In this document: one piece after another, positions 3,199 to 62,669 of the stretch
Layout of the letters: every line of letters begins with the position of its first letter
How positions within the stretch are numbered: position 1 is the stretch's first letter
Program-made: the position numbers and the translations under genes
Notes under the pieces: model-generated
The model's database searches: none
Seen by the model: only the letters and a program-made list of their open reading frames with translations
What the model was told of the DNA's origin: nothing
Assembly: GCA_944320495.1 (NCBI GenBank)
Contig: CALUHR010000009.1
Location: 32,001 to 96,000 of the forward strand
Length of the DNA stretch: 64,000 bases
Source: Candidatus Methanomethylophilaceae archaeon
GTDB lineage: Archaea > Thermoplasmatota > Thermoplasmata > Methanomassiliicoccales > Methanomethylophilaceae
Direction: 5' to 3'

Positions 3199-3497
3199 GC
3201 GCACACGACTGCATGGCCCTGATCGACGTCCTGGGCGAGAAGCACGTGCTGGAGATGTTGCTCTTCCTCCGCGAGAACGGGACATGCAATAAGAGCCAGC
3301 TGTACAGCGCTGTCTCCCGCGGTGCACGTATGCCGGACAAGCTGGACATGATGGAGGTCGTCGGGCTCATCGTCATCGACAGCGTCGACGGCTCCAGGTG
3401 CCACCGCGTCTCCCTGACGGACCTGGGCCGGAGGGTGAGCGACTTCCTTCATGACCTGATGGATGGCGCGTCCAATCGTGACCCGGCTGTCGCCCGA
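3195..3497 (+). CDS. Winged-helix (HxlR/MarR-like) transcriptional regulator; ends at CGA 3495-3497 (standard-code end 3671)
   Basis: GTG start overlaps the upstream TGA. wHTH pattern with the wing motif VSLTDLGRRV. 100 aa up to the CGA; the standard-code tail crosses a hairpin and the next promoter. Confidence 0.75.
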
Positions 3498-3550
3498 CGT
3501 TCCACGGCCGCCGACAAACGACTTACGGGCCCCCGGCCCGGAAACCCCTT

Positions 3551-3572
3551 CCGGCGTTCGTCCGGACGCCGG
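3551..3572. terminator. GC-rich hairpin
   Basis: CCGGCGT...ACGCCGG inverted repeat downstream of the wHTH CGA. Confidence 0.5.
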
Positions 3573-3662
3573 TATCACGATTCCTGGATCCTTCACATCC
3601 CGGTGGTAAGTGTCTGCGATTCGTGCGACCTCGGTGTCATCTTTTCAGAATTGTTATATGCC

Positions 3663-3690
3663 ATATGTTAGCATCAGAGCAACATATAAA
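3663..3690 (+). promoter_or_regulatory. Inverted repeat overlapping the TATA box of the EamA gene
   Basis: ATATGTT-N11-AACATAT; TATAAA at 3685-3690; ATG at 3715. Confidence 0.5.
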
Positions 3691-3714
3691 TCCGCACGTC
3701 GGGAGTTGCGGCGC

Positions 3715-4665
3715 ATGGTTCTCGGGAAGAGTGGGGCGGTCCTCTGCGCATTCATGGCGGCCGTGTTCTACGCGATCAGCTCGCCGGTCTCGAAGGTCCT
3801 GCTGGAGGACGTCTCCCCGTACCTCATGGCGGCCCTTCTGTACCTGGGGACGGGCATAGGCATGACTACCGTCCGCTCCGTCACGGGCGCAGGGAGGCGC
3901 GAGAAGCCCTACGGCCGCAAGGACCTGCCGTACGTCGTGGCGATGGTGGTGCTGGACATAGCGGCGCCCATACTGCTGATGTACGGGCTGCTGAGCTCCC
4001 CCGCGTCCTCGGTCTCGCTTCTGAACAACTTCGAGATCGTGGCCACGACAGTCATCGCCGTCGCGCTCTTCGGCGAGCGTGTTTCGGCGAGGATGTGGTT
4101 CGCGGTGGCGGTGATAACCCTGTCGGTCATCCTGCTGTCGTTGGACGGCGTCACGGGGCTGTCATTCAACCACGGCTCGCTCGCCGTGGTGGCCGCATGC
4201 GTCTGCTGGGGACTGGAGAACAACTGCACGGGGAGGCTCTCGTCCACCGGGCCGTCCAGGGTGGTCGCCATCAAGGGGGTGTTCTCCGGTCTCGGAGCGC
4301 TGGCAATCGCCCTGTTCATGGGCATGGGCTCCCCCACGCCGCTGGAGGTCGTCGCCGCCCTGCTGCTCGGGTTCGTCTCCTACGGGCTGAGCCTTTACCT
4401 GTACATCTCCGCCCAGGCGGCCCTGGGGGCGTCGAGGGTCAGCGCGTACTACGCCTCGGCGCCGTTCATCGGCGCCGTGCTCTCCCTCGCGATCCTGGGC
4501 GAGTCGCTGTCCGGAACGTACCTCGTCGCCCTCGTCGTGATGGCCGCAGGGGCCGCGATCATGACCTGGGACACCCTGCGCGCCGATCCCGGGGACCCGG
4601 ACGGACCGGGCCCCGGCGAGGGGACGCTCAGGCGGTCGGCGCGGGTTCGTAGGCGTACTTCCTGA
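3715..4665 (+). CDS. DMT/EamA family transporter
   Basis: About 10 hydrophobic segments in two EamA-like repeats (SASSVSLLNNFEIVAT; ALGASRVSAYYASAPF). Confidence 0.9.
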   Translation: MVLGKSGAVLCAFMAAVFYAISSPVSKVLLEDVSPYLMAALLYLGTGIGMTTVRSVTGAGRREKPYGRKDLPYVVAMVVLDIAAPILLMYGLLSSPASSVSLLNNFEIVATTVIAVALFGERVSARMWFAVAVITLSVILLSLDGVTGLSFNHGSLAVVAACVCWGLENNCTGRLSSTGPSRVVAIKGVFSGLGALAIALFMGMGSPTPLEVVAALLLGFVSYGLSLYLYISAQAALGASRVSAYYASAPFIGAVLSLAILGESLSGTYLVALVVMAAGAAIMTWDTLRADPGDPDGPGPGEGTLRRSARVRRRTS

Positions 4666-5263
4666 CGAACGGGATCAGCATGCAGCCGATGGCGTTGCCG
4701 ATCAGGACGAGCACGATAAAGATCAGCGAATCCAGGGTGAACGCGCCCGCGGAGCAGACGTAGAACATGTCGGCGATGGAGTGTTCGAATCCCGCCAGGA
4801 TGAACACGGGGACGCAGAAGAAGATCGCCAGGAAGCTCTTGCGCTGCTTGTAGAAGTCGACGGCGATGAACATCAGGATGCCGCACATCAGGCCCTTGAA
4901 GATCACGGTGTACCACTCGAGGGCGAGCTTCCCGTCCACCAGGGCGGGGGCGTTGTCGTAGGGCATCATCAGACCGATGAATAGGCATCCGATGAAGTTC
5001 CCGATGATGATCACGAGGATGTTCTTGAGGTAGGACGGGGGGTTCTCGACCGCGTATCCCACCTTGCCGGTGTAGAGGTCGAACCCGAAGGCGACGACCG
5101 TGAGGAGTCCGACGGAGAACATGATGGCCCCGACCCATTTGACGTCGCAGGCGAGGTATACGCACCCGCCGATGGAGATGGCGATCCCGGCCAGGAACGC
5201 CCTCAGCAGAATCCGCCAGTAGCGGCCTTTGTCAGAGCTCGTGGTAGTAGACGATGATGTCAT
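4628..5263 (-). CDS. Formate/nitrite transporter (FNT) family channel, short
   Basis: RAFLAGIAISIG, LYTG, GNFIG and GFEHSIADM motifs; 211 aa. Confidence 0.88.
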   Translation of the reverse strand: MTSSSTTTSSDKGRYWRILLRAFLAGIAISIGGCVYLACDVKWVGAIMFSVGLLTVVAFGFDLYTGKVGYAVENPPSYLKNILVIIIGNFIGCLFIGLMMPYDNAPALVDGKLALEWYTVIFKGLMCGILMFIAVDFYKQRKSFLAIFFCVPVFILAGFEHSIADMFYVCSAGAFTLDSLIFIVLVLIGNAIGCMLIPFVRKYAYEPAPTA

Positions 5264-5717
5264 GGTATGCCCCGTCGATGTGCCTGAACCCTCCGGGTAT
5301 CGTTCCGACCCGGTGGAACCCAAGGCTCTCATAGAGGTGTCTGGCTCCGGCGTTCTCCGCCACGACGGCGTTGAACTGCATGATGCGGAATCCCAGCCTG
5401 CGGGCCTGCTCCAGCGAGTCGAGGACCAGCGCCCTGCCGACGTGCATCCCGCGGGCCTCCGGATCGACGGCGTAGCTCGCGTTGGCGATGTGCCCGCAGC
5501 GCCCGACGTTGTTCGGGCGGATCTCGTACATGCCGACGATGCGGCCTTCCGACTCGGCCACGGCGCAGTATGAGAAGCCTCCGAAGAACACGGCCTCGCC
5601 ACCCTCGGGGATGGTATCCATCTGCGGGAACGCCTCCCCGTCCTCCACGACGATGTTCCAGATCCTGGCCATCTCGCGGAGGTCGGAATCGCGGCTTTGC
5701 CTGACCAGAACCTCCAT
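5232..5717 (-). CDS. GNAT family N-acetyltransferase
   Basis: VDPEARGMHVGRAL acetyl-CoA motif; NAGARHLYESLGF. Confidence 0.92.
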   Translation of the reverse strand: MEVLVRQSRDSDLREMARIWNIVVEDGEAFPQMDTIPEGGEAVFFGGFSYCAVAESEGRIVGMYEIRPNNVGRCGHIANASYAVDPEARGMHVGRALVLDSLEQARRLGFRIMQFNAVVAENAGARHLYESLGFHRVGTIPGGFRHIDGAYHDIIVYYHEL

Positions 5718-5804
5718 GGTCTGATGTCATCCCGTCCATACGATTTAAGGGAGCATGGCGGGGTCCTTCCCACCCTTTAAATCGGCCATGGCGTTCGCGG
5801 TCTC

Positions 5805-6731
5805 ATGCCCAGCGTTAAGCCGGTGAAGGCCGGATGGTGGAACGCCCTCAGGCCGTGGACACTCCACGGAGCGGTCGTGCCGGTGCTCATAGGAGGCGTC
5901 GTCGCATACGGCGACGTCGGCTTCGACGCGCTGTCCTGGGTCATGTTCGTCCTGATCCTGGTCGCGGGATGCCTGATACAGTCCGCATCCAACCTCCTCA
6001 ACACCTACGGCGACTTCAAGGCGGGGACCGACACGGTGGAGAACGAGACCAGGTCCCCCGAGCTGGTCACGGGCGTCCTGGATCCGCACTACGTCAAGAT
6101 GGCGGGGATCGCCTGCCTCGGGGCCACATGCCTGCTGGGTCTGATCTTCATATGGTACAGCGGATGGGAGATTCTCGTCTACGGGATCCTCGGGGTCCTG
6201 GGCGCCGGCATGTACACGACCGGCCTGTCCTACAAGTACCACGGCCTCGGCCAGCCCTCGGTCTTCCTGATGATGGGCATCCTGATGCCCCTCGGCACAT
6301 ACTGCGTTCTCGGCGGCGGATGGTTCTCCTGGGAGGTCCTCTGGCTCAGCATACCCAACGCGTTCCTCATCACAGCGGTCCTCTGCGGGAACGAGACCCG
6401 CGACTACGAGGAGGACAGGAAGGCGGGCGTGCGCACCCTCTGCAGCCACTTCTCGAGGGACGGGGCCCTGAGGCTGTACCTGTTCATGACCTCGATCGCC
6501 TATCCGATACTGCTCGTCCTGATCGCCGCCGGCATCGCGCCGTGGCCCTGCGCCCTGGCGTTCCTGTGCCTCTGGGACATGCGCATCCTCTGGCACAACG
6601 CGAAGATGTCCGCCGGCGACGCCCACGCCAACTTCATGCTGGTGCCCCTGTGCTTCAGGATGAACTGGCACTTCGGCGTGCTTCTCGTAGTCGGCTATAT
6701 AATCGGCGAGTTCATCATCCCGGTGATCTGA
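5805..6731 (+). CDS. menA: UbiA-family prenyltransferase, MenA (DHNA polyprenyltransferase)-like
   Basis: LRPWTL, NLLNTYGDFKAGTD and NETRDYEEDRKAGVRTL motifs; multi-TM. Confidence 0.75.
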   Translation: MPSVKPVKAGWWNALRPWTLHGAVVPVLIGGVVAYGDVGFDALSWVMFVLILVAGCLIQSASNLLNTYGDFKAGTDTVENETRSPELVTGVLDPHYVKMAGIACLGATCLLGLIFIWYSGWEILVYGILGVLGAGMYTTGLSYKYHGLGQPSVFLMMGILMPLGTYCVLGGGWFSWEVLWLSIPNAFLITAVLCGNETRDYEEDRKAGVRTLCSHFSRDGALRLYLFMTSIAYPILLVLIAAGIAPWPCALAFLCLWDMRILWHNAKMSAGDAHANFMLVPLCFRMNWHFGVLLVVGYIIGEFIIPVI

Positions 6732-6732
6732 C

Positions 6733-7479
6733 ATGGAAGAGGAGCTCAAGAAAGGGGTCCAGTTCGAGGGCAAGGAGGAATACATCAAGGATGTGTTCAC
6801 CGAGATCGCGGACTACTACGACGAGATGAACGAGATCATGTCCATGCACATGGTCCAGGGCTGGCACAAGTTCATGATGCGCAAGGCCGGCGACATCGCC
6901 GGGAAGAGGTGCCTCGACGTGGGCACCGGCACCGGGGAGATCGCCTTCCATGTCGCGAGGACCGCCGGTCCCGGCTCCACGGTCATCGGCGTGGACATCA
7001 CCCCGAGGATGCTGGAGCTCGCCGCGAAGAAGGAGAAGGAGCTCGACCTGCCGGTCAAGATCGACTGGAGGGTCGGGGACGCGCTCAACCTGGACATCCC
7101 GGACGACTCCGTCGACCTGGTCACATCCGGATACATGCTCCGCAACGTCACGGACATCCAGAAGGCGGTCTGCGAGATGCACCGCGTCCTGGCGCCCGGC
7201 GGCAGGGTCGTCGTGGCCGAGCTCTCCAAGCCGAAGAACGGCGTCATCCGCTTCTTCTACAACATCTACATGAAGAGGGTCAAGAGGTACGGCCGCAAGT
7301 ACGACAAGGGCAAGTCCATCGACGGCCGCCAGTCCGCCTACGAGTGGCTGACCTCATCGATAGAGGGGTTCCCCTATGGGGAGGACATGGTCAGGATCTT
7401 CCGCAAGGCCGGGTTCGAGGACGCCAGGTTCTATGTCAAGTCCTTCGGCGCCGTCAACATCTACGTGGGGACGAAATGA
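6733..7479 (+). CDS. ubiE: UbiE/MenG-family SAM methyltransferase
   Basis: VFTEIADYYDEMN, LDVGTGTG, GDALNL and MHRVLAPGG motifs. Confidence 0.88.
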   Translation: MEEELKKGVQFEGKEEYIKDVFTEIADYYDEMNEIMSMHMVQGWHKFMMRKAGDIAGKRCLDVGTGTGEIAFHVARTAGPGSTVIGVDITPRMLELAAKKEKELDLPVKIDWRVGDALNLDIPDDSVDLVTSGYMLRNVTDIQKAVCEMHRVLAPGGRVVVAELSKPKNGVIRFFYNIYMKRVKRYGRKYDKGKSIDGRQSAYEWLTSSIEGFPYGEDMVRIFRKAGFEDARFYVKSFGAVNIYVGTK

Positions 7480-8111
7480 GGGAGTACAACCTCTACCTCT
7501 TCGACTTCGACAACACCCTGTACGACACGAGCGCCGGCATCCACAGGATCCTCGAGGAGGTCCTGCCGGTCATCGGCGTGGATTACCGCAGGGAGGAGTT
7601 CACTAGGTACCTCGGGATGTCCATGGATGACATCTTCGACACGTATTCGAAGCGTCCGGACGCGTACGACGAGTATCGCTCCAGGTTCTACGATGCGGTG
7701 GCCACGAACTCCTACAGGGAGTCGGAGCCGTTCCCCGAGACGCTCCGCGTCCTGAGGGCCCTCAAGGACAGGGGCAAGCGCATCGGTATAGTGTCGGGGA
7801 AGATGCGCTACAAGATCGTGGACCTTCTGGAGGACCAGGGGCTCGGGGACATCCCCGAGACAATCGTGGGGTGGGACGACACCGACGCCCACAAGCCCGA
7901 CCCCGAACCGGTGGCGCTCGCGTTCTCGAGGTTCGACGTCCCCCGCGACAGGACGCTCTTCGTCGGCGACAGCTACAACGACGCCGGGGCTGCCAACGCC
8001 TTCGGTGTGGACTGCGCCATAGTCAAGCGTCCCGACGGATTCATGGCCGAGGACCTGCCCTGCAGGTACGAGATCCCCAGCCTGGAGGATCTGCTGGTCT
8101 GGGACGAGCGA
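7476..8111 (+). CDS. HAD-family hydrolase/phosphatase; ends at CGA 8109-8111 (standard-code end 8132)
   Basis: LFDFDNTL, HKPDPEP and FVGDS motifs; ATGA overlap with ubiE. Confidence 0.9.
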
Positions 8112-9185
8112 TCGCAGCATCCCCTGGGATGACAGCCTCATCAGCAGGTCCCGGGCCTCGCATATGCCGGACTCGGCGGACGCAGTGAGCAATCTTATCG
8201 CATCCCTGTCCGGCATCTCGATGCGTCCGGACAGTGCCAGGGCGCCGAGGTTGTACATGGCCGTCGGTTCTCCGGCATCCGATGCGCTCCTCAGCAGCGT
8301 CTCCGCACGTTCGATATCCCTGTCGATGAGCATGGATCCGAGCATCGACTGGGCGTAGACGAACCCGGCGTCGGAGGCCATCTCCATCCATTCCATCGCC
8401 TTGTTCTCGTCCCTCTCGCCGAGCGAACCGTCCATGAGCATCAGCGCGAGGTTGTACATCGCCTTGACGTCGCCGTCCAGTGCAGCATCTGTGAAGTATC
8501 CCTCCGCCTCCGCGAACTCACCGCGCTCGTAGAGGATCCCTCCGATGCACAGGCGGGCGTCGTTGTCACCCTGGTCCGCAGATGCGCGGAACCATCTCTC
8601 GGCCTCCTCGCGGTCGACGGGTATGCCGTCACCCGCGTCCAGCATCATGGCGAGATCGTACTGGGAGTCCGGGTCGCCCGCCTCGGCGGCCCTTCTATAG
8701 AGCTCCGCCGCGCGCGGCTTGTCCGGGAAGACGCCCTCGCCGGTGCGCAGGATATGGGCCAATATGCCGGCGGCCTCGGTGCTGGTGGACGCAGCCCTCT
8801 CGAGCCACATGACGGCCCTCTCCGGATTCGCCGCCACCCCGTTCCCTCCGCGGAGCATCGTCGCGGCGTTGATCATGCCCTTCTCGTATCCCGCCTCCGC
8901 GGCCCTCTCGAAGAGGGCGAGAGTCCGAGCGGGGTCGATGCCCATCATGATGCTCCCGAGGTTGCACATGGCCTTCGTGTTCCCGAGGTCGGATGCGCGC
9001 TTGAGGTACTCCGCGGCGGTGACCGTGTCCTGGGGGACGCCCTCGCCGACGATGTACATGTAGCCGAGCGACGACGACGCGTCCGCATCGCCCAGGTCCG
9101 AGGCCTGCCTGTACAGCTCGGCCGCCCTGCCGGGGTCCTGTTCGCGGACCTCGTCGCCCATCTTCCTGATCTCGGAGGCTTCCAT
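8112..9185 (-). CDS. Sel1-like repeat (SLR/TPR) protein; ends at CGA 8114-8112 (standard-code end 7461)
   Basis: About 9 repeats of A...LG.MY..G.GV..D...A..W...AA..G. The repeats end at SSQGML, immediately before the CGA. Confidence 0.88.
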
Positions 9186-9256
9186 GGGGGCGGAGGATGG
9201 TCGGTTCACGCTTAACCTTTAGGATGATTGATATCGGGGATGCGCATGCAGGTCGC

Positions 9257-9583
9257 ATGGCAAAGGCGAACGGGGTCATGGCGGGTCTGTTCTACATCGT
9301 GTTCGGGATAATCTGGATTGCGATGTGCGGGGCCATCCCGTCCGCCATCGGCTTCCTGTTCATGGTCGTGGGCGCCCTGGTCATCGCCTTCGGGGCCCTC
9401 ATGATCGTCAGGACGATCAGGGGCGGCGGTCCGCAGTCGTTCAGGGCGAGGACCTCCCGCCCGGAGGAGCCGTCCGAAGGGGAGCAGGAGCCGAAGGAGT
9501 ACAGCGGATACTGCCCGTACTGCGGCTCCCCCGCCGAGGAGGGCTACGAATACTGCCGCGTGTGCGGCAAGAGGATAGGGTGA
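9257..9583 (+). CDS. Membrane protein with C-terminal zinc ribbon
   Basis: 2 TM helices plus CPYCG...CRVCG; TGA stop. Confidence 0.85.
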   Translation: MAKANGVMAGLFYIVFGIIWIAMCGAIPSAIGFLFMVVGALVIAFGALMIVRTIRGGGPQSFRARTSRPEEPSEGEQEPKEYSGYCPYCGSPAEEGYEYCRVCGKRIG

Positions 9584-9587
9584 GACC

Positions 9588-9866
9588 TTGGACCGTCGCG
9601 ACCTGGTGTTCGTGATCCTGGTGGTCCTGGTCGGGGTGTCCGCCCTTTCGGTCATAGCCTACATGCTGTGGCCCGAGGGGTCCATGCCCTTCCCGTTCGG
9701 ATTCCTCCCCTTCATCTTCCTGTTCTTCCCGATCATTATACCGCTGAGCTGGAGGGGCAAAGGGAGCGCGAGGGTCGAGGACCCTGACGACTACTGTCCC
9801 GGATGCGGATGTCCGCTCGATCCGGAGTACGACTTCTGCACCGTATGTGGCCGGAGAATACGCCGA
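9588..9866 (+). CDS. Membrane protein with C-terminal zinc ribbon; ends at CGA 9864-9866 (standard-code end 9908)
   Basis: TTG start; 2 TM plus CPGCG...CTVCGRRIR; CGATG overlap with the next start. Confidence 0.8.
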
Positions 9867-10198
9867 TGCCGAGATGGGTCGGATGGGCGCTGCTGGCGGT
9901 CGGCATAATCTGGTTCTTCTGCTCGCCGGCGGTCATCGTGATCTACGGTCCGATAGGCATCCCCGTGCTCTTCGTCTCGTTCGTCCCTCTGATCCTGGGT
10001 TCCCTGATCATATCGGGGATGACCGGCAGATGGGCACCGCAGGTCTCCGTTCCAGCGGAGGATGCCCCGTCGGCCGAAGAGACGGACGGCGATGCCGACC
10101 TGGCCGCATCCGGATACTGTCCGTTCTGCGGATCGGTTGTCGAGGAATCCGACAGGACATGCGCCGTATGCGGAAGGTCGCTGCGCGGCAAGAGGCGA
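9866..10198 (+). CDS. Membrane protein with C-terminal zinc ribbon; ends at CGA 10196-10198 (standard-code end 10327)
   Basis: 2 TM plus CPFCG...CAVCGRSLRGKR. Confidence 0.8.
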
Positions 10199-10240
10199 CG
10201 GGAGCATCGCCGGATCCTGGGAGAATCCAAGGGGTTTGGG

Positions 10241-11746: not shown

Positions 11747-12511
11747 TCGTATCGAGGACGCCTCCCAGGGCGGCACCCAGGAGATCCCGTGGATGTCCAG
11801 GCGGTCGGGTGACACGATCACGGTCCTGTCATCCGGATGGCTCTCGAGATATTCCCTGAGGCTTCTGGCGTAGGCGCGGCTGCGAGGTTCGATCTGGACT
11901 GCGACCGCACTTCCATCCATGCTGTCGACGGTGAACGCCTCGGCGCGGTTGCCCGACCTCCAGCACGCGAGTTCCGGATGCACCCTGCGCATCTCGAGCA
12001 GGACTGCTGACACGGTCATGGCGTCCAGGAGGCTTTCCGGTTCGTAGCCGGGGGATGTTCCCGCCAGAACCCTCATGATCCCTGTGTCCGAGCAGAGCAG
12101 GATGGAACCCGCCCGAGATCCCTTCGAGAATATCGGGATCTCGACCGTGGCACCGGAGCTCTCCAGCGCATCCAGCGGTCCGCGCAGGTCCCTGAGGCGG
12201 AGCCCCGGGGAAACGCTCCCGTACATGAACTTCCGGTTGTTCCCCGACAGCTGCCTCGGTATGCTGCGGAGGATCCACAGGCATTTGGCGGAGAAGGCCT
12301 CGCCCCGCTCATCCGCGATGGAGTCCTCGAGATCATCCAGGATACATGAGAGCACCTCGTCCACGGAAGCGATGTCGCGCGTCTCAGCCCAGGCATCCAC
12401 GGCCTTCGGGATGCCGCCTACGGCGATGTATTCGTCGAAAAGCGTGCGCATGTCCGCGGGACCGTCCGATCCGTCGGCACCCAGCCTGGAGACGAACTCT
12501 CCGAACGGCAT
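11747..12511 (-). pseudogene. DUF4143-type C-terminal part of an AAA+ ATPase, lacking the P-loop domain; ends at CGA 11749-11747
   Basis: PMPFGEF, EYIAVGGIP, SIPRQLS..N.KF.Y and DTG motifs. No Walker A upstream; the mtnP gene lies directly upstream. Confidence 0.65.
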
Positions 12512-16093: not shown

Positions 16094-16510
16094 TCGGGCC
16101 CTCTCGGAGACGATCTCGTTGGACGTCACGATGTTGAGGCGCGGGCAGTCGGCGCAGATGCCGAGGTCCCCGCTGTATCCCTCGAAGACGTACAGCGCCT
16201 TCAGCAGGCCGCTCTCCTTCACGAAGTTGCAGATTCCGCAGAGCGACTCGGTGACGTCCGCTCCGTTGGAGATCTCGTCGGCCATCCTGGCTATCTCGGC
16301 GTAGAAGTCGTCCTTGTAGGCGCTGCGGTCGATCAGGTTGTTCCCGCCCCGCATGCCCTTGAGGTACTGGGACACCGCTGCGCTTGTGACGCCGAAGAGC
16401 TTGGCCACCTGTGTCTGGGTCATGCCGTGGCTGGTCACCAGGTCCCTGGCGAGCGCTCCGCGCGCTGTGGGCAGAATGTGTGTGACTATGAGCTCGCACG
16501 GCATCTTCAT
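16094..16510 (-). CDS. Archaeal HTH transcriptional regulator (COG2522-like); ends at CGA 16096-16094 (standard-code end 16067)
   Basis: MPCE..V..ILP..R..LA, Q..VA..FGVT.AAVSQY and C..C motifs. Confidence 0.8.
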
Positions 16511-19499: not shown

Positions 19500-20263
19500 C
19501 ACTCAGGACCGTGAATCTGAGTTTCTCATACGGCGGAGACCGGATACTGAGGGAGGTGTCGATAGAGGCCGGTTCCGGGGTCACCGCCCTGTTGGGTCCG
19601 AACGGTGCGGGGAAGTCCACGCTAGTGAAGTGTCTGTCGGGAGTCATCCGCCCGGATGGGGGTACGGCCGAATTCAACGGCATTGACCTGCTGGATACTC
19701 GTCGCGGAAGTCTTAGAATGGGCTATCTGGCACAGGATCTTCCGGCGGTCTCGGAGACCAATGTTCTGGAGATGATGCTCCTCGGGAGGATCAACTCCCT
19801 CGGCCTCGAGGTGGGCGTGGAGGACCTGGACAAGGCTTACGGCGCATTGGAGGACGCCGGCATAGAGGATCTGGCGGCCAGGGACTTTAATGAACTCAGC
19901 GGTGGGCAGCGTCAGATGGTCATGGCCGCCCAGTGTCTCGTCGACGATCCCGATCTGATAATACTTGACGAGCCGACGAACAACCTGGACATCCGCAGGG
20001 AGTTGGATTTGTTCGAGATGATGACCCGTTACACGGAGGAGCACGGCATCACCACACTGATGGTCCTGCACGATGTGAATTATGCCTCCAGGTTCGCGGG
20101 AAATGTCGTCGTTATGAGGGATGGCAAGGTGTATTCCACCGGCACTCCTGAGGAGGTCATCACGGAGGGGATGCTCCGCGATGTCTACGGCGTCGAGGCC
20201 AAAGTGGGGAGAGATGTCTTCGGGAATCCCCATGTGGAGGTCCTCCATTCGATCCGTCTCCGA
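19496..20263 (+). CDS. FepC/BtuD-type ABC ATPase; ends at CGA 20261-20263 (the standard code fuses it to the next gene)
   Basis: GPNGAGKS, LSGGQRQ, LDEPTNNLD and VLHD motifs; 255 aa up to the CGA. Confidence 0.88.
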
Positions 20264-24040: not shown

Positions 24041-24718
24041 ATGGACAGGGACGAGGTCCAGAGGGTCAAGACCAAGCCGACGCTGGCTGATTTCGCCGAG
24101 ATGACCCTCGCCGTCTTCATAATGGCTCTGGGCGTCATCATCACCGTCAGGTCCCTCCAGGGCGTCTCCCCGGTGTCGTCCCTCACATACGTCCTCAGCC
24201 AGGTCGCCGACGTCTCACTGGGGACGATGACGTTCATCGTCTACTTCGTGTTCGTCCTGTTCCAGTGCGCCGTCTACAGGGACAGGGGTATGACCATCAG
24301 GGTCTTCAGCCAGCTGCCGTACACGATCCTGTACAGCGTCTGCATGGATGTGCTCGATTACGCGCTCGCGCCGCTCAGCGCGGAGACGCTGGCGGGCCAG
24401 TGGGGGCTCGTCCTGATCGGATGCATGCTCACCAGCCTGGCCATCGCCATGGAGGCGGACGCGAACGTGTCGATGCTCCCGGACGACGGTCTGATGCTCG
24501 CGGTCCACAGGGCCACGAAGATCCCCCTCGGCAGGAGTATCATCGTCGTGAACATTGTGTCCATAGCGGCGGCCTTCGCCATCTCCCTGGGTGTCCTGGG
24601 AGGATTCTACGGGGTCGGTCTGGGAACGATATTCATGGCCATCGCCCAGGGGTACATAGTCAAGGCGATGACGCCGATGTTCAGAAGGTTCCGCAAGCAC
24701 GGCCATCTGGATCTCCGA
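24041..24718 (+). CDS. YczE/YyaS/YitT-family membrane protein; ends at CGA 24716-24718 (standard-code end 25663)
   Basis: ALGV, G.SP.SS, SLG, D.LM and GVGLGTI motifs; TTTATA 24 nt before the ATG. Confidence 0.85.
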
Positions 24719-40407: not shown

Positions 40408-41061
40408 ATGTTCGATCTTTACGTCGTCACCGATTCCGACCTCTCCCGCGGACGCACCGACGCCGAGACGGCGCGTCTCGCCTACGAGGGTGGCGCCGAT
40501 GCGGTGCAGCTCAGGATGAAGCACACCGACGGAGGGGAGATGCTTGCCCAGGCGAGGGAGATCGCGGCGATGGCGCAGGAGATGGGACGGTTCTTCTTCG
40601 TGAACGATCGCGTGGACGTCGCCATGGCCTCCGGCGCAGACGGCGTCCATCTGGGTCAGTCGGACATCCCCGTGGGGACGGCGAGGAGGCTCATGGGGGA
40701 CGACGCGATCATCGGAGTCTCCGTGCAGACGGTCGAACAGGCGGTGGCCGCCGTCGAGGGCGGCGCGGATTATCTCGGCGTCGGGTCCATCTTCAGGACG
40801 TCGACCAAGCCCGACGCCGTCCAGGCGCTAGGACTCGGTGCCGTGTTCGAGATAAGGCAGGCCGTGGACGTACCGATTGTCGCCATCGGCGGGATAAACC
40901 GCGGGAACATCCAGGATGTCATACGCGCAGGAGCGGATGCGGCAGCGGTGGTCTCGGCCGTCGTCGCCCAGGACGATCCCCGTGCCGCCGCCCACGAGCT
41001 CAGGGATCTTATCCTCAAGGTCAGGCCGCACGTGGTCCCGGAGGAGGTCCCTGAGGACCGA
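40408..41061 (+). CDS. thiE: Thiamine-phosphate synthase; ends at CGA 41059-41061 (standard-code end 41109)
   Basis: LYVVTD, VQLRMK, VNDRVD, GVHLGQSD, GSIFRTSTK and AIGGI motifs. Confidence 0.93.
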
Positions 41062-44873: not shown

Positions 44874-45254
44874 ATGGCTTTCGGATCCGGCGCTCCATCG
44901 GAGGAGTACAAGCTCGTCGTCCTCGTAAGGACGGATCTCGACATGGGCAAGGGCAAGATCGCGGCCCAGGTCGGTCACGCCTCGGTCGAATGCGCCCTGA
45001 GGGCCGAGAAGAAGGACAAGCGCGCCTTCGACATCTGGATGAACGGCGGTCAGAAGAAGGTCGTCCTCAAGGTCGCCAACAAGGACGAGATGGTCCGCTA
45101 CATGTCCGAGGCCAAGAGCCGCGGGCTCTACGCGTGCATGATCACCGATGCCGGCCGCACCGAGGTCGAGCCCGGGACCAACACCTGCGTCGGCATTGGT
45201 CCCGCCCCCGGCTCCGAGATAGACCGCGTGACCGGCGGCCTCAAGATGCTCCGA
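44874..45254 (+). CDS. pth2: Peptidyl-tRNA hydrolase Pth2; ends at CGA 45252-45254 (standard-code end 45356)
   Basis: KLVVLVRTDL.MGKGKIAAQVGHA, QKKVVLK and DAGRTEV.PG motifs; TGGLKML terminus. Confidence 0.95.
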
Positions 45255-46590: not shown

Positions 46591-48279
46591 TCGGACCGAC
46601 TCGATCCTGCATGCGAAGATCGCATCCTCCGGGTGATGCCCTTCGGACGTGTCCCCGATCTCGAAGGAATCCCCGCTGGTCTCGCAGAGGACGAACCTGT
46701 ACCCCAGTATCTCGATGCCGTATCCGGGGGCGTCCAGATCCACGGCGGGCATCGCATGGTCGTCGAAGAGCAGGAACGCCGTCCGATAGCCGGAGAGGCC
46801 CATGATCGTGCCGAACAGGAACGTGGTGTCCTCGCAGTCCCCGCCACCGTCCCACAGGGTCTCCACCGGGAACTTCCAGTACTCATGGGATCCGCGCGTG
46901 TCGATGTCCTCCAGGTACGGCACCGACTGGACGAACTCGAGGACGAACTCCGCGTACTGCAGCCTGTCCAGCCCGGAGCCGAGCTCCATCAGCTTCTCGG
47001 CCATCCTGACGATGACGGGGTCGTCCGGCGTGTAGAACGTCTCCATGTGGGACTGGTAATGCTGTGCGAACCTGGGAAGGGTCGGATCATCATACTCATG
47101 GGCGTACGCCTGGCTGAGGAACACCGTGTCGGAGTACCGGTACCTGATGCCGTCGTACACCCAGGTGAATGAGAACGTCCTCTCGTCCTCGATGAGGAAC
47201 TCGAGGGTGGTGGTGACGCCGTCGATGGCCTTGGTCGCCGTGTACAGCCCCGGGGACTCAGGGCGTGCGACTGCTCCTCCCGAGGCATCGGTGATCTCCG
47301 CGTCTCCGAACCCCATGTCGATGACGTCCTGGAAGCCACTGACGACGACGTATCCGCTCGATGCGCAGGCGCGATAGACGTCGGACGGGGACGGCATGAG
47401 CACCGTGAGCGTGCGGTCGGTGGTGGCGAGGTGGCCGTTCACGTACCATCCCTCGAAACCGTCCCCGTAGGCGTACAGGAACAGCGGCTTGTTGGCATCC
47501 GCCTCCATGACCTCCACCGTCAGCGGATGGTCCGCGTAAACGTTCGGGGCGAACGATGTGTCCGGGTCGTAGCCGAAGACCTCTGTGGTCTCGTAGACGA
47601 CCGTCCCCTCGGTACCCATCCGGGATTCGATCATCATCGGAATCAGGAGGTCCTTGACCCACATGGTGTCGCCGCCCCTGGTCCAGACAGTGACCCTCTC
47701 CTCTCCCATGAACTGGTTGCCGGCGTACGTCCATCCGTCGGTGATGCTCCGGCACCAGCCGGAATGCGACGACCCGTCGGTCCATCCCCCGTCCGGCCAG
47801 GAGTAGAAGACGTTCCTGTCCTGGCTCACCAGCGCCATGCCGTCCCTGACGGTGTCGTAGCCCCAGGTGACGGTCCCCTCGACGGTGTGCGGGATGTCCC
47901 CGTTCCTGTACTCGCCGAAGACGTCCATGGTCCATCCGGTGCCCACGCGCGTGTCCTCCACCCATTTGGCGTAGAGGATGATGTGACCGCGGAGATCGGG
48001 GCTTATCGCCATGATGGGGTTGGTGAGAGCGGCCTCGGTGCACCATCCGGCGAACCAGTACCCTTCCCTCTCGGGGATGGGCAGGGTCGCGGAGGATCCC
48101 GCCACGTAGTATCCCGGGGCGTCCGTCGGAAGGGTTCCCCCGTCCGTGCGGTAGCTGATGTAGAACCTCTCGCCGTCCCGGACCTCCGTGTCGTCCAGCA
48201 CGGTGGTCGCGACGACCGCGGATGCGAGCGTGGCGAACGCCAGGGCAATGGCGACGGCGGCCAGCACGGACTTCCTCAT
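46591..48279 (-). CDS. Secreted protein with InlB B-repeat and C-terminal transglutaminase-like Cys protease domain; ends at CGA 46593-46591 (standard-code end 46186)
   Basis: Signal/TM segment; LPIPEREGYWFAGW...LYAKW; FVQSVPY, YWKFPVETL..GGGDCED and DH motifs. Confidence 0.8.
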
Positions 48280-52796: not shown

Positions 52797-53426
52797 GTGG
52801 ACAAGGTAGAGATGTCGCCCATCCTCCTCTCTCCCGGCAACAGGCTGGTGACGGTCTTCGGAGGGGGTAGGGTCGCCCTTCGCAAATGCCGCCATTTTGA
52901 CGGATTCAGGATACGCGTGGTCTCCGAGGAGGTCATGCCCGAGCTGAGGGAGCTGGCGGAGGAGGTCCTCATCGATTCCATCGACAGGGACAACGTCCTG
53001 CGCTACATCGAGGGGTCCGACATCGTCGTGGCCGCCACGTCCGACCACGCGCTCAACGATATGATAAGGGACACCGCTATGTCCCGGGGGATAATGACCA
53101 ACTCCGCCCACGGCGGAGGGGACGTCCTAATACCATCGACCCTCCACAGGGACGGCTGGACGGTCTGCGTGTCATCCGAGGGTCGCGTCCCGGCGTTCCC
53201 ACCCTATGTGATCGAGAGGATCGACGAGATGCTCGACCCATCGTACGATGCGATGCTGGCACTGCTGGTCGACCTGAGGGTCGTCATAAGGGAGAGGATA
53301 CCCACGCAGCCAGGTAGGGCGGAGTTCCTCGCAGGGGTGCTCGCAGATGAGGACGTCTGGGACCTCCTGAGGGAGGGCCGCGGCGGGGAGGCGAGGGAGC
53401 TGGCTCTCGCGAGGGGAGGTCTCCGA
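52797..53426 (+). CDS. sirC: Precorrin-2 dehydrogenase (SirC/CysG N-terminal type); CGA 53424-53426 is directly followed by TGA
   Basis: VFGGGRVALRK, VVAATSD and VCVSSEG.P motifs. Start uncertain (GTG 52797 or ATG 52812). Confidence 0.85.
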
Positions 53427-57777: not shown

Positions 57778-58517
57778 CAGGCAAGGTTTATCTTGTGGGG
57801 GCGGGACCCGGCGACCTGGGCCTGTTCACCGTGAAAGGGCTGCAGCTGCTGAGGGAGGCCGACGTCGTCATGTACGACGCCCTGGCCAACCCCGACCTGC
57901 TCCGCGAGTGCAGGTCCGACGCGGAGCTGATAGACGCCGGCAAGCGCGCGCGGGACCATCATCTCAGCCAGTGGCAGACGAACGAGCTCCTGGTAAAGTA
58001 CGCCCAGGAGGGCAAGGTCGTCGTCCGTCTCAAGGGGGGCGACCCGTTCCTGTTCGGGCGCGGGGCCGAGGAGGCCGAGGAGCTGAGGAAGGCGGGGGCC
58101 GAGGTCCACGTCGTCCCCGGTGTGTCCTCGTCGATATCCGTTCCGGAGCTCGCCGGCATACCGGTCACGCACAGGGACTACGCGTCCATGGTGACCTTCA
58201 TCACAGGCCACGAGAAGGACGGCCGCGAGGGCGACCGCATCGACTGGGGGTCCCTTGTGAACGGCCACGGCACGCTCGTGATACTCATGGGCCTGGGCAA
58301 CGCCGGCAACATCTCCAGGCAGCTTATCGAGGGCGGCATGTCCCCAGACATGCCCGCCGCGGTCATATCCAAGGGCTCAACGCCCGAGCAGAGGGTCGAG
58401 GTCACCACCGTATCAGGTCTAGAGGCAACCATCCGCGACAAGGCGCTGGAGCCTCCGGGCATAATGGTCATCGGCGAGGTGGCCTCGGTCCGTGAGAGGC
58501 TGGGTGACCTGGTATGA
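57774..58517 (+). CDS. cobA: Uroporphyrinogen-III C-methyltransferase
   Basis: VGAGPGD, RLKGGDPFLFGRG, VPGVSS and ITGHE motifs. Confidence 0.96.
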   Translation: MTGKVYLVGAGPGDLGLFTVKGLQLLREADVVMYDALANPDLLRECRSDAELIDAGKRARDHHLSQWQTNELLVKYAQEGKVVVRLKGGDPFLFGRGAEEAEELRKAGAEVHVVPGVSSSISVPELAGIPVTHRDYASMVTFITGHEKDGREGDRIDWGSLVNGHGTLVILMGLGNAGNISRQLIEGGMSPDMPAAVISKGSTPEQRVEVTTVSGLEATIRDKALEPPGIMVIGEVASVRERLGDLV

Positions 58518-59278
58518 CCACGATAGGGTTCACCAGGCCGTCCAAGAGGCTCCCGGACGCCGTCAAGGAGGCGAGGGACCTCGGGTTCGACGTCATGGTG
58601 GCGCCGTCCCTGGAGATCCTCCCAGGCGAGGATTCGGAGTTCAAGAGGCTGGAGGAGTCGATCCCCGGGAGCATCGTCGTGTTCTGCTCTTCCACAGCGG
58701 TGGAGGAGTGCCAGGCGCGCTTCGGCAACGGTCTCGCGGGCATGGTCTCCGGGGTGAAGGTCGTGTCGATAGGCCCCGCCACCACGGCGAAGCTGAAGGC
58801 CGCGGGCATCGAGCCGTCGGCCGTCCCGGAGGACTACTCGTCCTACGGTCTCGTGGACCTCCTCAAGGGGGAGGCATCCGGTTCCCGCATCGTCCTGGTG
58901 AGGTCCGACAGCGGCACCGACGTGCTCTCCGACGGCCTCAGGGAGGCCGGTGCGGACGTCGTGGACGTCGCCGTCTACCGTCTCAGGGAGGCCGGCATGG
59001 GCAACGGCATGCTCCATATGATGATCTCCCTCAAGCAGGGGAAGATCGACGCTCTGGCGTTCTCCTCGCCCATGTCCGCGTCGTCCTTCATCTCGAAGCT
59101 CGAAGATCGCTACGGCAAGGAGAGGGCGGCGGAGTATCTTCACGGGACGAAGATCGCGGCCATAGGGCTGCCAACATCCAGGAAGCTGGAGGAACTGGGG
59201 TTCAAGCCCGACATAGTGCCGGAGAAGACGACCTTCCACGACATGCTGCTGGCCATCCGCGAGGAGTTCCAGCAGTGA
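58514..59278 (+). CDS. hemD: Uroporphyrinogen-III synthase
   Basis: FTRP, IGPAT, L..GLREAG..V..V.VY, FSSP and AIG.PT motifs; operon position. Confidence 0.9.
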   Translation: MTTIGFTRPSKRLPDAVKEARDLGFDVMVAPSLEILPGEDSEFKRLEESIPGSIVVFCSSTAVEECQARFGNGLAGMVSGVKVVSIGPATTAKLKAAGIEPSAVPEDYSSYGLVDLLKGEASGSRIVLVRSDSGTDVLSDGLREAGADVVDVAVYRLREAGMGNGMLHMMISLKQGKIDALAFSSPMSASSFISKLEDRYGKERAAEYLHGTKIAAIGLPTSRKLEELGFKPDIVPEKTTFHDMLLAIREEFQQ

Positions 59279-59285
59279 GAAAACA

Positions 59286-59300
59286 GGGGCCGATGGCCCC
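59286..59300. terminator. Hairpin after hemD
   Basis: GGGGCC-GAT-GGCCCC. Confidence 0.55.
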
Positions 59301-59304
59301 CACT

Positions 59305-59715
59305 TCACTGGTTCCCGAGCAGCCTGAAGCAGCACGGGACCTGGCGGCAGGCGTTGGTGAACAGATACACCTGCGTGTCCCTGCCCTTGAGCTTCTCGAG
59401 AGCTTTCTGCCAGTCCATCACGGGCACATCCTGCTCAACGATCCAGTTGATCCTGGTGTCCCCGGACGTCATGTCGTCCATGACGCGCACGAGGTCTCTG
59501 GCGAAGTCCACGTCGTTGTCGATGAGGAAGTCCCTGTCGAGCATCACGACCTTGGAGTCCGGCTCCTGTCTCTCTATCTCGCCTCTCACCAGGTCTATCA
59601 GGAATTGCATCCCGTCCGTGCGGAGGCCACCAATTGATCCAATGTTGCGGTCAGAAACGAAGCCGGACACCTTGTCGCGGGGGTCGCTCTCCGAAGGGCA
59701 GGACTGTATTAGCAT
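59305..59715 (-). CDS. Hypothetical protein, paralog-like to 60543-60875
   Basis: ATG at 59715; VSGFVSDRNIG motif. Confidence 0.6.
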   Translation of the reverse strand: MLIQSCPSESDPRDKVSGFVSDRNIGSIGGLRTDGMQFLIDLVRGEIERQEPDSKVVMLDRDFLIDNDVDFARDLVRVMDDMTSGDTRINWIVEQDVPVMDWQKALEKLKGRDTQVYLFTNACRQVPCCFRLLGNQ

Positions 59716-59897
59716 GAGGTCCGGATGCGCATCGGCGATAGAAATCGATTGGGGTGGATACCACAGGGCGATGGGAACTGGATATGGACGATTAATGATG
59801 TAAGAATTATAAATGATAGACAATAGCTTATAATCCTGTTTGTACACGCTCAGATATAAGTAGAACGACAATCCTATACTTCAGCCGAGGTTATCCA

Positions 59898-60479
59898 ATG
59901 TCATTCTTCGATAACACGAAAATCGCTGGATGGGGCCTGTTCCTCGTCGCCATCCTGTCGATCATCAGCGCCATCATCTCCATCTACAACGGAGCGGTGA
60001 AGGAGGGCGATGACAGGCTCGCTCTCGTCGTCGCCGGTATCGGTGCGCTTCTGGCGGCCTTCATCTACTTCGGTTTCGGAAACAGCGTCCGCAAGGGCGA
60101 GATTGACAAGAAGATCGACGTCCTCGCTCAGTTCGTCAAGACTGTCGGACTCGCCACCATCGTCGCCTCTCTGTTCGGAGCGATCGCTGGAACCTGGGGA
60201 GTCAGCATCTCCACCTGGTCCAACGTCGGTATGATAATCCTCGGTATCATCATCTGCTGGATCGCCGGCAAGATCAACGACGGCAAGACCACCAACTTCG
60301 ACAGGATCCTTTGGATCATCCTGGTCGTCATCTTCCTCGTCTTCTTCATCCTCAGGCTCTCCGGAGCATTCGGCGGAGCATGGTACGACATCCTCGCCAG
60401 CATCCTGATGGCCATCGTCTACCTCTACATGCTCATCTTCATGTTCGACAGCGATGTCAGGAAGAGGATGGGTATCTGA
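59898..60479 (+). CDS. Multi-pass membrane protein
   Basis: About 6 TM segments; strongly biased, highly-expressed-type codon use. Confidence 0.8.
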   Translation: MSFFDNTKIAGWGLFLVAILSIISAIISIYNGAVKEGDDRLALVVAGIGALLAAFIYFGFGNSVRKGEIDKKIDVLAQFVKTVGLATIVASLFGAIAGTWGVSISTWSNVGMIILGIIICWIAGKINDGKTTNFDRILWIILVVIFLVFFILRLSGAFGGAWYDILASILMAIVYLYMLIFMFDSDVRKRMGI

Positions 60480-60542
60480 TCCGGAAGGATCCGATCGAAA
60501 CCCCTTCCCAAACCCTTTACCTTCTGTCGCGTTCCCCGTCTC

Positions 60543-60875
60543 ATGAGCTGCTGTTCCGCCGAGGAGGACCCCGCCACCCTGGAGGCCAGGGTCTCAGCAT
60601 TCGTCTCCGACCGTTCCGTGGGCGCGGTGACCGGCCCCCGCAGGATGTCCCGCGAGGACTTCGTCAGATACGTAGCGGATGCGGCCAGGACCAAGGGCAA
60701 GGATGTGGTCGTCGAGCCGGCCCCGGGGGACCGCGCCGGTACTCTGGTTTTCATGCACTGGAAGGATGTCGACGACAGTGTGCTGGCCTCCAATCCGGAC
60801 GCCGACATCCTATGCGGCCAGGATTTGTGCCACCAGGTCCCCGTCGTCATACGCCTGAACAGGCTGGATGACTGA
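60543..60875 (+). CDS. Hypothetical protein
   Basis: 110-aa ORF; VSAFVSDRSVG motif. Confidence 0.6.
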   Translation: MSCCSAEEDPATLEARVSAFVSDRSVGAVTGPRRMSREDFVRYVADAARTKGKDVVVEPAPGDRAGTLVFMHWKDVDDSVLASNPDADILCGQDLCHQVPVVIRLNRLDD

Positions 60876-60887
60876 GACAACCATTAA

Positions 60888-61451
60888 ATGGTCCGGACTC
60901 GCCTCCATATCCTGGTGAATTCAGTGGAGGTAGTCGTTGAGAAGTACAATCCCTGGAAGAACTCGATGGTGTCGGGAGTGCTCCTGCTCATCGTCGGTAT
61001 CCTTCTCGCCGCCCTTCAGGGCGAGGGTCTCAAATGGATCATCATCCTCGCCGGGGTCCTCATGCTCGTGTACGGAGCGCTGTCCATCTACGATACGTAC
61101 AGCTCCGGATTCAAGTTCGGAATGACCATGGGCATAGTGGTCGCCGTCATAGGTCTGGTCCTGATCATCGTCCCCAACCTCATCGCGGACATCGCGATGG
61201 CCCTGCTCGCCCTGCTGCTCATAATCATTGGTCTGATGTCGCTACTGGGGGCGGCGCCGGGATTCGCTATAGCGTCCGGATCGAGGTTCGTGTCGATAAT
61301 CGTCGGGGCGATCTTCATCGTCCTCGGTGTTGTCGCCATATTCAACCTGGACGACACCGCCGACGTGATAATGATCGTCATCGGGGTCATGACCGCCCTC
61401 ATGGGTCTGCTCCAGATCTTCAGCTCCTACCAGCTCAAGAAGGTCTGCTGA
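60888..61451 (+). CDS. HdeD/DUF308-like membrane protein
   Basis: Repeated G.L.II.G hairpin TM pairs. The true start is probably a downstream GTG. Confidence 0.75.
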   Translation: MVRTRLHILVNSVEVVVEKYNPWKNSMVSGVLLLIVGILLAALQGEGLKWIIILAGVLMLVYGALSIYDTYSSGFKFGMTMGIVVAVIGLVLIIVPNLIADIAMALLALLLIIIGLMSLLGAAPGFAIASGSRFVSIIVGAIFIVLGVVAIFNLDDTADVIMIVIGVMTALMGLLQIFSSYQLKKVC

Positions 61452-61486
61452 AACGGTTTCCGGGAAGGGGGTGTGTCCCCTCCCCA

Positions 61487-61768
61487 TCACTTCTGTCCCG
61501 TGATCTTGATCACGTGGTATCCGAACTCGGTCTGAACCGGTCCTACGACGTCGCCGGTCTTCCCGGCGAAGCAGGCGTCCTCGAAGGGCTTGACCATCTG
61601 TCCCTTGGCGAACCATCCGAGGTCCCCTCCCTTGGCCTTGGAGGGGCATTTGGAGAACCTCTTCGCCAGGGTGGCGAAGTCCTCGCCCTTGGCGAGGCGG
61701 TCCATGATGCTCTGGGCGTCCTTCTCGTTCGGTACGAGGATGTGCGAAGCGCGTACGGTCTTGACCAT
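61487..61768 (-). CDS. ppiC: Parvulin-type peptidyl-prolyl isomerase
   Basis: VRASHILV, LAKRFSKCPS...GGDLG, MVKPFE and TEFGYHVI motifs. Confidence 0.93.
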   Translation of the reverse strand: MVKTVRASHILVPNEKDAQSIMDRLAKGEDFATLAKRFSKCPSKAKGGDLGWFAKGQMVKPFEDACFAGKTGDVVGPVQTEFGYHVIKITGQK

Positions 61769-61895
61769 GCCGACGTGAATCGGCACGGACGATATAATGC
61801 TCCCGTCCGACATCCGATTCAACGCCGTTAACTGGCCTTCATTCCGACCGGTTCCCACCCAGTTCCTTAAATCAGAGGACGTCGACCCTCGGGTC

Positions 61896-62669
61896 ATGAT
61901 ATTCGTCTTCTCCGGCACGGGGAACTCGTACGCGGCCGCCAAGCGCATCTCCGAAGCCATCGGCTCCGGCATGATCGACATCGCCGCGGCGGTGAGGTAC
62001 AAGCGCTACACCTACGACGCCAAGGGAGAGCCCGTCGGGTTCGTGTTCCCCACCTACTACTACGGGCTCCCGCGCATGGTCCTCGAGTTCGCCAGGAACG
62101 TCACAGTCCTGAACCCCGGCAGGGTGTTCGCCGTGACCACCTGCGGGGAGGAGTCCGGAGGGGCCTGCGAGATGCTCGCCGAGGAGCTCGGCAGTCGTCT
62201 GAGGGTCGATGCATCCTACGACGTGGTCATGCCCGACAACTCCGTCTTCGCCTTCGACCCCCCGACAAAGGAGCAGGCGGAGGAGACGCTGAGGGCCGCC
62301 GACGCCGAGATCGACCGCATCATAGGGTCCATCAAGGCGGGTGAGTCGGGAGACATGTGCGCCCACAAGGGTGACAAGGACTGGAGGGAGATCTATGCGC
62401 TCTACGACGAGCAGCGCGTGACGGAGCCCTTCAGGATCACCGACGCCTGCATCGAGTGCAGGATCTGCGAGGACATCTGCCCGGAGCAGATCATCAAGGT
62501 CTACCACAGGAAGCCGGTCTGGGACGAGGAGAAGTGCTCCCTCTGCATGGCCTGCATCCAGATGTGCCCCAAGGGGGCGATAGAGTACGGCGATGCCACG
62601 GTGAACCGCGGCAGGTACTACAACCCAATCTTCTACGAGAGGACCATCGGGATACCGCTGAAGTACCGA
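61896..62669 (+). CDS. EFR1-family flavodoxin/ferredoxin fusion; ends at CGA 62667-62669 (standard-code end 62717)
   Basis: FSGTGNS, FPTYY and MPDN motifs; CIECRICEDICP and CSLCMACIQMCP. Confidence 0.9.

Follow-up and report, generated by a model that had tools for sequence, protein, structure and literature searches.

CGA as a probable leaky terminator of genes in a gut methanogen of the Methanomethylophilaceae

Apparent gene ends at CGA in a 64,000-nucleotide window

The stretch of DNA analyzed here (the window) comprises 64,000 nucleotides, C9:32001-96000, on contig C9 (CALUHR010000009.1) of a Methanomassiliicoccales metagenome-assembled genome (MAG) assigned to Candidatus Methanomethylophilaceae (GCA_944320495.1). 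This source genome, G000, holds 1.77 Mb on 14 contigs at 62% GC; other C numbers below are its contigs, and other G numbers are further genomes of the order. Our subject is the arginine codon CGA, which stands in frame at the apparent ends of 14 genes in the window. Judged from gene structure and from orthologs, CGA most likely marks the end of about one-fifth of the genes in G000 and in a sub-clade of its genus, where it appears interchangeable with TGA over evolutionary time. A sequence-only reading of the window had proposed that CGA is a stop codon in these 14 genes, and all of the CGAs it listed (14/14) were found in frame where it had placed them.

Under the standard code, 13 of these genes acquire a tail or a fusion beyond CGA, as that reading had claimed, with lengths running from 6 to 611 codons, where that reading had given 7 to over 300 amino acids. 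Pfam domains in the CGA-ended genes of the window finish at or before the CGA. GC content at third codon positions (GC3) is about 0.9 in genuine G000 reading frames, which mostly use AGG and CGC for arginine, and in 12 of the 13 window genes with a tail it drops from 0.73–0.95 before the CGA to 0.38–0.73 after it.

The individual ends range from compact regulators to large surface proteins. A small wHTH-like gene meets CGA at 3495..3497 (+), followed by a 57-codon non-coding tail to a TAG at 3669, with GC3 of 0.85 before and 0.63 after. Two convergent genes then draw their terminal CGA from a single palindrome, CGATCG (8109-8114), the hexamer seen most often at CGA ends in the genome as a whole (32/283). 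One is a HAD hydrolase gene (8109..8111, +) whose HAD_2 profile is complete before CGA and whose tail, at 6 codons, is the one that falls below the range first given. The other is a Sel1-repeat gene (8112..8114, -) with a tail of 216 codons, its best Sel1 stretch at residues 183-218 of 368, before the CGA, and GC3 falling from 0.80 to 0.60. Two zinc-ribbon genes follow. In the first (9864..9866, +) the zinc ribbon occupies residues 72-92, CGA is codon 96 and the tail has 13 codons; the second (10196..10198, +) is the exception to the compositional drop, with GC3 rising from 0.73 to 0.81 past CGA because its 42-codon tail runs into the 3' end of a gene on the minus strand.

Farther along, a 343-codon gene labeled DUF4143 in the sequence-only reading, with no Pfam match, ends at 11747..11749 (-) ahead of a 178-codon tail over which GC3 falls from 0.78 to 0.38, and an HTH_3 regulator gene ends at 16094..16096 (-) with a tail of 8 codons and GC3 going from 0.95 to 0.62. 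The most drastic case is an ABC ATPase gene (FepC) with CGA at 20261..20263 (+), past which a second complete protein with ABC_membrane and ABC_tran domains begins, so that the standard code would fuse FepC in frame to this next ABC exporter over 611 codons. A membrane protein gene similar to YitT/DUF6198 (24716..24718, +) has its domain at residues 83-274, CGA at codon 289 and a tail of 314 codons. In thiE (41059..41061, +), which carries a 15-codon tail, orthologs stop at the same place with TGA (G006 and G016) or CGA (G018 and G009). In pth2 (45252..45254, +) the PTH2 profile is matched to its last position, 115/115, at residue 157; CGA is codon 158, and the tail has 33 codons. A 567-codon surface-protein gene with a transglutaminase-like (TGase-like) label ends at 46591..46593 (-), with a 134-codon tail and GC3 of 0.85 before and 0.52 after. 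In sirC (53424..53426, +) the CGA is followed directly by TGA and shares bases with the start codon ATG of the gene downstream (CGATGA), and at this very residue the ortholog in G013 comes to its end. Last, a 4Fe-4S protein gene called EFR1 in the sequence-only reading (62667..62669, +) has a 15-codon tail, and the end of its G013 ortholog projects onto codon 297, which is the CGA codon.

Position and depletion of CGA across the genome and its relatives

For genome-wide counts, the G000 gene set was taken as stop-to-stop open reading frames (ORFs) with the codon-position GC pattern of a sense frame, GC1 > GC2 being required. The comparison of in-frame CGA with ortholog ends that the sequence-only reading had recommended confirms that the pattern extends across the genome: about 19% of G000 genes meet CGA exactly where their orthologs carry TGA or TAA, and the coding signal ends there. 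When codons with coding sequence on both flanks are set against those with coding sequence upstream only, the ratio for CGA is 12/590 (0.02), alongside 0.024 for TAA, 0.036 for TGA and 0.059 for TAG; the next-lowest sense codon, TTA, stands at 0.23. GC3 is 0.88 before CGA versus 0.67 after it, compared with 0.84-0.86 after other rare codons. Counted by decile of ORF length over 1096 ORFs, CGA occurs 751, 396, 118, 35, 7, 6, 14, 31, 86 and 297 times. Under strict criteria, which apply to this count and to that of the window below, CGA ends 154 genes and TGA ends 653.

Inside genes, CGA is nearly absent. A codon-usage log-odds scan of G000 counted interior arginine codons as AGG 9292, CGC 5495, AGA 740, CGT 739, CGG 345 and CGA 4, that is, 4 CGAs among roughly 16,600, a deficit of about 180-fold against CGT, and out of frame the genome contains some 95,000 CGA trinucleotides. 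The sequence-only reading had held that no intact gene has an interior CGA. This stands for the window, where none was found, the scan's four all lying on other contigs, but it does not carry over to the whole genome, in which a few conserved interior CGAs exist. Terminal CGAs lie in diverse sequence contexts; the base that follows (+4) is T in 51%, C in 20%, G in 17% and A in 12%, and at 28% of CGA ends the codon overlaps the next start codon as CGATG.

Orthologs with a known end were available for 236 G000 genes. Of these, 197 end at the same place and 38 run at least 3 codons beyond; among the 38, CGA sits exactly at the ortholog stop in 11 and within 2 codons of it in 16. Any other codon appears at the ortholog stop position at most twice, and TGG never does. 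Because TGG is the other GC-ward one-step derivative of TGA, its absence argues that the pattern is not one of general stop loss.

CGA-ended genes are found elsewhere in varying proportion: 11/45 in G010, 9/56 in G018, 2/6 in G003, 2/34 in G013, 1/36 in G008, 1/58 in G015 and 0/22 in G006. Outside the family, Methanomassiliicoccus (G024) has 0/24, and six genomes from five other families jointly have 1/48. Between G000 and G018, which are 96% identical, 8 ends are CGA in both and 46 are TGA in both, so that all comparable CGA ends (8/8) are common to the two; between G000 and G010, 7 CGA ends are common, 6 differ as TGA>CGA and 2 as CGA>TGA. CGA ends are thus stable and heritable.

The standard stop codons show a pattern of their own. 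The strict gene set of the window ends at TGA 32 times, at CGA 8 times and at TAA twice, and no TAG end occurs among its genes. Most TAA and TAG ORF ends genome-wide lack upstream codon periodicity, meaning that they close non-coding tails. The scarcity of TAG gene ends fits the published code of the family, in which TAG encodes pyrrolysine (Pyl); a tRNA with a CUA anticodon was not found by ARAGORN. A signal that seemed to make TAG a sense codon, in 220 genes, was rejected: the signal came from antisense frames that share the high GC3, as shown by the 86% G before TAG, which equals the TAC share of tyrosine codons. On contig C5, two regions (C5:89758-119349 and C5:193336-222480) hold a cluster of very long ORFs of 1,400-1,800 codons with few arginine codons, and in several cases both strands of one stretch are open; these probably encode repetitive surface proteins.

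Interior CGAs, tRNA-Arg(UCG) and aRF1

A small number of CGAs inside genes must be read through, and one of them lies in the gene for the release factor itself. G000 aRF1 (C2:85942-87135, -) contains exactly one CGA, at R79, and the frame continues through it. At the genome-wide interior rate, the chance of one or more CGAs among its 23 arginine codons is about 0.006. The R79 codon is CGA in 39/41 genus-level orthologs, and no aRF1 locus of the family lacks the codon (84/84 have one or more), which falls at only a few positions of the N domain (79, 26, 12, 124, 28 and 51), with exactly one per gene within the genus and up to five elsewhere in the family. A scan of aRF1 in public genomes showed that the genus of G000 also takes in Candidatus Methanoprimaticola sp. 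MG2, along with numerous MAGs from gut and rumen that stem from unrelated projects; some 40 assemblies, made by many projects with many assemblers, have the aRF1 CGA in common, the isolate-type record of MG2 included. Several contigs bearing a Methanomethylophilaceae aRF1 are also filed publicly as Ruminococcus sp., Bifidobacteriaceae, Lachnospiraceae, Prevotella hominis and Dialister hominis, and these are probably mis-binned or mislabeled MAGs.

Ribosomal protein L18e (C13:191554-191913, -) provides a second fixed site. All distinct sequences from the genus (30/30) have CGA at codon 30, the arginine of IW-R-D, and four further families of the order have it too. Other conserved rare codons surround it (CTT34, AAA38, GAA45 and AAA50), a hint that the RNA itself is under constraint; when the L18e locus was searched for RNA elements, no Rfam family matched.

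The third site is the linker codon of a fused gene joining GmhA (SIS) to GmhB (HAD) (C13:193621-194703, -). The linker is the sole CGA of the gene in G002, G004 and G006, and the G000 gene contains one more, its terminator. The linker CGA occurs in six or more species of the genus, read directly in five (including G010) and deduced from the open frame in G018. Elsewhere the position is lysine in Methanomassiliicoccus and a different arginine codon in G012, and in G007 the junction is stop-laden and frame-broken. The GmhB half lacks a start codon of its own, and we rejected an arrangement of two separate genes, the outgroups having an uninterrupted fusion with lysine at the linker position.

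A fourth site, at C5:178733 (+), places CGA after a soluble domain and ahead of two predicted membrane helices in a gene with no Pfam match, which then ends at another CGA; partial termination there may give soluble and anchored forms. A further candidate on C8 was rejected as an ordinary same-frame gene junction. In the aRF1 and C5 genes the interior CGA is followed by C (CGA CTC in both), and in L18e and the GmhA-GmhB gene by G, versus the T bias at gene ends, a comparison that involves four interior sites only.

One and the same genome thus has CGA at gene ends and at conserved sense positions, with its cognate tRNA present. The strict absence from conserved sense positions that a full reassignment would entail does not hold at aRF1, L18e and the GmhA-GmhB linker. 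The sequence-only reading had described CGA as a dedicated stop, and the fixed codons at aRF1 R79, L18e codon 30 and the linker, together with the enrichment of backup stops described below, speak against that part of it.

Its simplest mechanism, loss of tRNA-Arg(UCG) combined with release by aRF1 or a rescue factor, fails on the first point. The tRNA is present at C13:413317-413390, beside UCU, CCU, CCG and GCG species, and it carries A20 and C35. It is probably functional, because it is conserved throughout the genus and its anticodon stem has changed in a compensatory manner. Its anticodon arm is atypical: the 31.39 pair is mismatched in all copies of the G000 type, as A.A, C.A or U.C (A31.A39 in G000-type genes), and G000 and G018 additionally have U32 and C38. 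A second unusual form, seemingly with C at position 33, occurs in G008, G015 and G007, and Methanomassiliicoccus (G024) has a canonical arm. Arm type shows no clean correlation with the strength of the trait among these genomes, for G004, G002 and G013 have the G000 type yet few CGA ends.

The motif inspection of aRF1 that had been proposed brought no support either, NIKS and YxCxxxF being ordinary. G000 aRF1 does carry G28S, giving GRST where eight relatives have GRGT in the GTx loop, the counterpart of the eukaryotic GTS motif. Among nine aligned aRF1 sequences this change is found only in G000; it is absent from G010, which has the trait. Variation among T, D and E within YxCxxxF does not clearly track the trait.

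Downstream of terminal CGAs, backup stops are enriched. The next in-frame standard stop comes at a median of 15 codons past CGA versus 28 past TGA (p=1e-6), and when the next gene lies in the same frame the median is 11 codons past CGA versus 283 past TGA. In the same comparison, a tandem TGA is present at 8.4% (CGA-TGA) versus 2.9%. The tails vary widely in length, 25% exceeding 41 codons and 10% exceeding 132, whole-gene fusions included.

Explanations weighed and known systems compared

Our preferred explanation, to which we give a probability of roughly three in four on comparative sequence evidence, is that CGA acts as a leaky terminator, read through as arginine at a few programmed sites, with feedback on aRF1 resembling that of bacterial prfB. 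Translation, we infer, actually stops at CGA, and this would explain the gene ends, the specificity for CGA and its near-total purge from gene interiors. The retained, atypical tRNA-Arg(UCG) would compete with termination, leaving a few fixed CGAs read as arginine: aRF1 R79, L18e codon 30, the GmhA-GmhB linker and probably the C5 junction between soluble domain and membrane anchor. Such a leak would also explain the backup stops. The terminating agent is most likely aRF1, taking CGA as a near-cognate of UGA, because the aRF1 gene itself carries CGA and because eRF1 is reported to misread CGA in yeast (PMC7379694). The CGA within aRF1 could then provide negative feedback, abundant aRF1 terminating within its own mRNA, and a partial stop at the GmhA-GmhB linker could yield two products from one gene.

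We also think it likely, with somewhat less confidence, that a whole lineage of gut methanogens, rooted in the order and covering no less than a sub-clade of the Methanoprimaticola-type genus, has CGA as a leaky fourth stop read by aRF1, the leak serving aRF1 autoregulation and the choice between GmhA and GmhA-GmhB. This would be the first sense-to-stop change in a cellular genome, added to the change of TAG to Pyl in the same organisms.

Several observations pull the other way. Decoding of CGA as arginine is required by aRF1 and by L18e, which is essential and highly expressed, and a functional-looking tRNA-Arg(UCG) kept genus-wide is unexpected for a stop codon. The NIKS and YxCxxxF motifs of aRF1 are ordinary, and the nine aligned sequences reveal no change common to high-trait genomes that is obviously tied to reading of the first base. 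That backup stops are enriched shows read-through to be of consequence, and termination at CGA may be inefficient. Gene sets were defined by codon-position GC without a trained gene finder, and the relatives, about 40 of them, were sampled at no more than 100 kb each.

The most direct alternative is tolerated stop loss, in which CGA always means arginine, TGA-to-CGA changes have been fixed under GC pressure and translation runs on through the tails until it meets a standard stop. The presence of tRNA-Arg(UCG) agrees with this, as do tails shorter than expected under neutrality and the avoidance of same-frame downstream fusions, both expected if tails are translated and costly; TGA also exceeds CGA 4:1 despite a strong bias of C over T, so that CGA ends look mildly disfavored. 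Yet the equally GC-ward change from TGA to TGG was seen 0 times at ortholog stops versus 11-16 for CGA, a quarter of the tails are longer than 41 codons and a tenth longer than 132, with whole genes fused, and CGA ends are stable across species. Nor would stop loss account for the roughly 180-fold interior deficit of CGA against CGT or for a fixed CGA in every aRF1 gene. The sequence-only reading had dismissed stop loss with normal arginine decoding, and the data sustain that judgment, CGA alone being enriched at ortholog stops and nearly absent inside genes; we consider this explanation improbable. About as improbable, in our estimate, is a route by stalling and rescue, in which a weak or scarce tRNA makes CGA effectively undecodable at most sites, ribosomes stall, and a rescue system that does not depend on the codon (aPelota/ABCE1 followed by Pth2) releases the chain, aRF1 not reading CGA at all. 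The unusual anticodon arms (A31.A39 in the G000 type, another odd loop in the G008 type, canonical in Methanomassiliicoccus) would suit it, as would the rarity of CGA throughout the order. It would nevertheless be a costly way of finishing 19% of proteins, it offers no reason for CGA to be kept specifically in aRF1, and the CGATG overlaps at 28% of CGA ends are an ordinary layout for termination and reinitiation.

A third possibility leaves the genetic code standard and has C-to-U editing of mRNA make UGA from CGA. The two codons are indeed one C-to-U change apart, and the aRF1 motifs are standard. However, the fixed CGAs of aRF1, L18e and the GmhA-GmhB linker would need sparing, some 95,000 out-of-frame CGAs would need to be ignored or else all edited, and the terminal CGAs present no common context. 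We know of no C-to-U mRNA editing of such a kind in archaea, and we rate this explanation slightly below the preceding two. Least probable by a wide margin is an artefact of assembly, consensus or database in which T was miscalled as C at TGA stops: it is excluded because assemblies of other species carry the trait at partly different genes, and the occurrence of the aRF1 CGA in about 40 assemblies of many projects and assemblers, MG2 among them, and the diversity of contexts point the same way.

To our knowledge, every code change accepted so far for bacteria, archaea or nuclear genomes runs from stop to sense or from one sense to another, and sense-to-stop changes are known from organelles only; CGA is not established as a stop codon for any free-living organism. 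If CGA terminates here, the sense-to-stop route would be open to free-living cells, a natural "ambiguous intermediate" would exist with its tRNA still present, and a new kind of release-factor feedback would be suggested. Standard gene callers, moreover, would extend or fuse about one-fifth of the proteins in these common human and animal gut methanogens.

Organelle codes offer the closest formal likeness: AGA and AGG in vertebrate mitochondria, TCA in Scenedesmus and TTA in Thraustochytrium mitochondria (NCBI tables 2, 22 and 23) became stops, and there, as here, a sense codon takes the place that standard stops have in the genes of relatives and has been cleared from interiors. The present case differs in belonging to a cellular archaeal genome, in concerning CGA, in keeping the cognate tRNA together with a few conserved interior CGAs that must be decoded, and in appearing leaky. 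Bacterial RF2 (prfB) is autoregulated through an in-frame UGA, and aRF1 resembles it as a release-factor gene that bears an early in-frame copy of its putative stop codon, with "at least one" such codon conserved across the family. Unlike prfB, aRF1 has no frameshift; passage would occur by read-through with tRNA-Arg, and the feedback is suggested by conservation alone.

The misreading of CGA reported for yeast eRF1/eRF3 (PMC7379694) provides a mechanistic parallel, in that a class I release factor of the eukaryotic and archaeal type acts on CGA when the tRNA decodes it poorly; in yeast this is low-level quality control on artificial runs of CGA rather than at normal gene ends. Within the archaea, the KACI preprint (bioRxiv 10.64898/2026.04.02.715157) reports two hydrothermal-vent assemblies with CGG reassigned to tryptophan and no CGA in conserved domains, and notes that homology-based tools for code inference are blind to stop gains. 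It raises CGA as a stop in archaea as a possibility, and so qualifies the belief of the sequence-only reading that no such code had been described. For Methanomassiliicoccales, our literature searches turned up no account of CGA in this role. The two vent archaea are unrelated to ours, at about 50% GC, with CGG reassigned and tRNA-UCG not found; no gene-end analysis was made, and the authors left the question open.

Codons of dual meaning are the nearest functional counterpart. UGA also encodes selenocysteine (Sec), UAG encodes Pyl under Code 34 in Methanomethylophilus and others (bioRxiv 10.1101/2024.09.30.615893), and Condylostoma and Blastocrithidia have context-dependent stops (PMC4967479). 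The Code 34 paper counts TGA and TAA alone as stops and never mentions CGA. In these systems, as proposed for CGA, one codon both terminates and encodes, with a tRNA beside the release factor and an unusual anticodon stem. No element similar to SECIS or PYLIS and no positional rule was found here, the bias at the +4 base (T favored at gene ends, C or G following each of four interior CGAs) being the only distinction seen between the two uses. The direction of change is also the opposite, for here a sense codon would be gaining the function of a stop.

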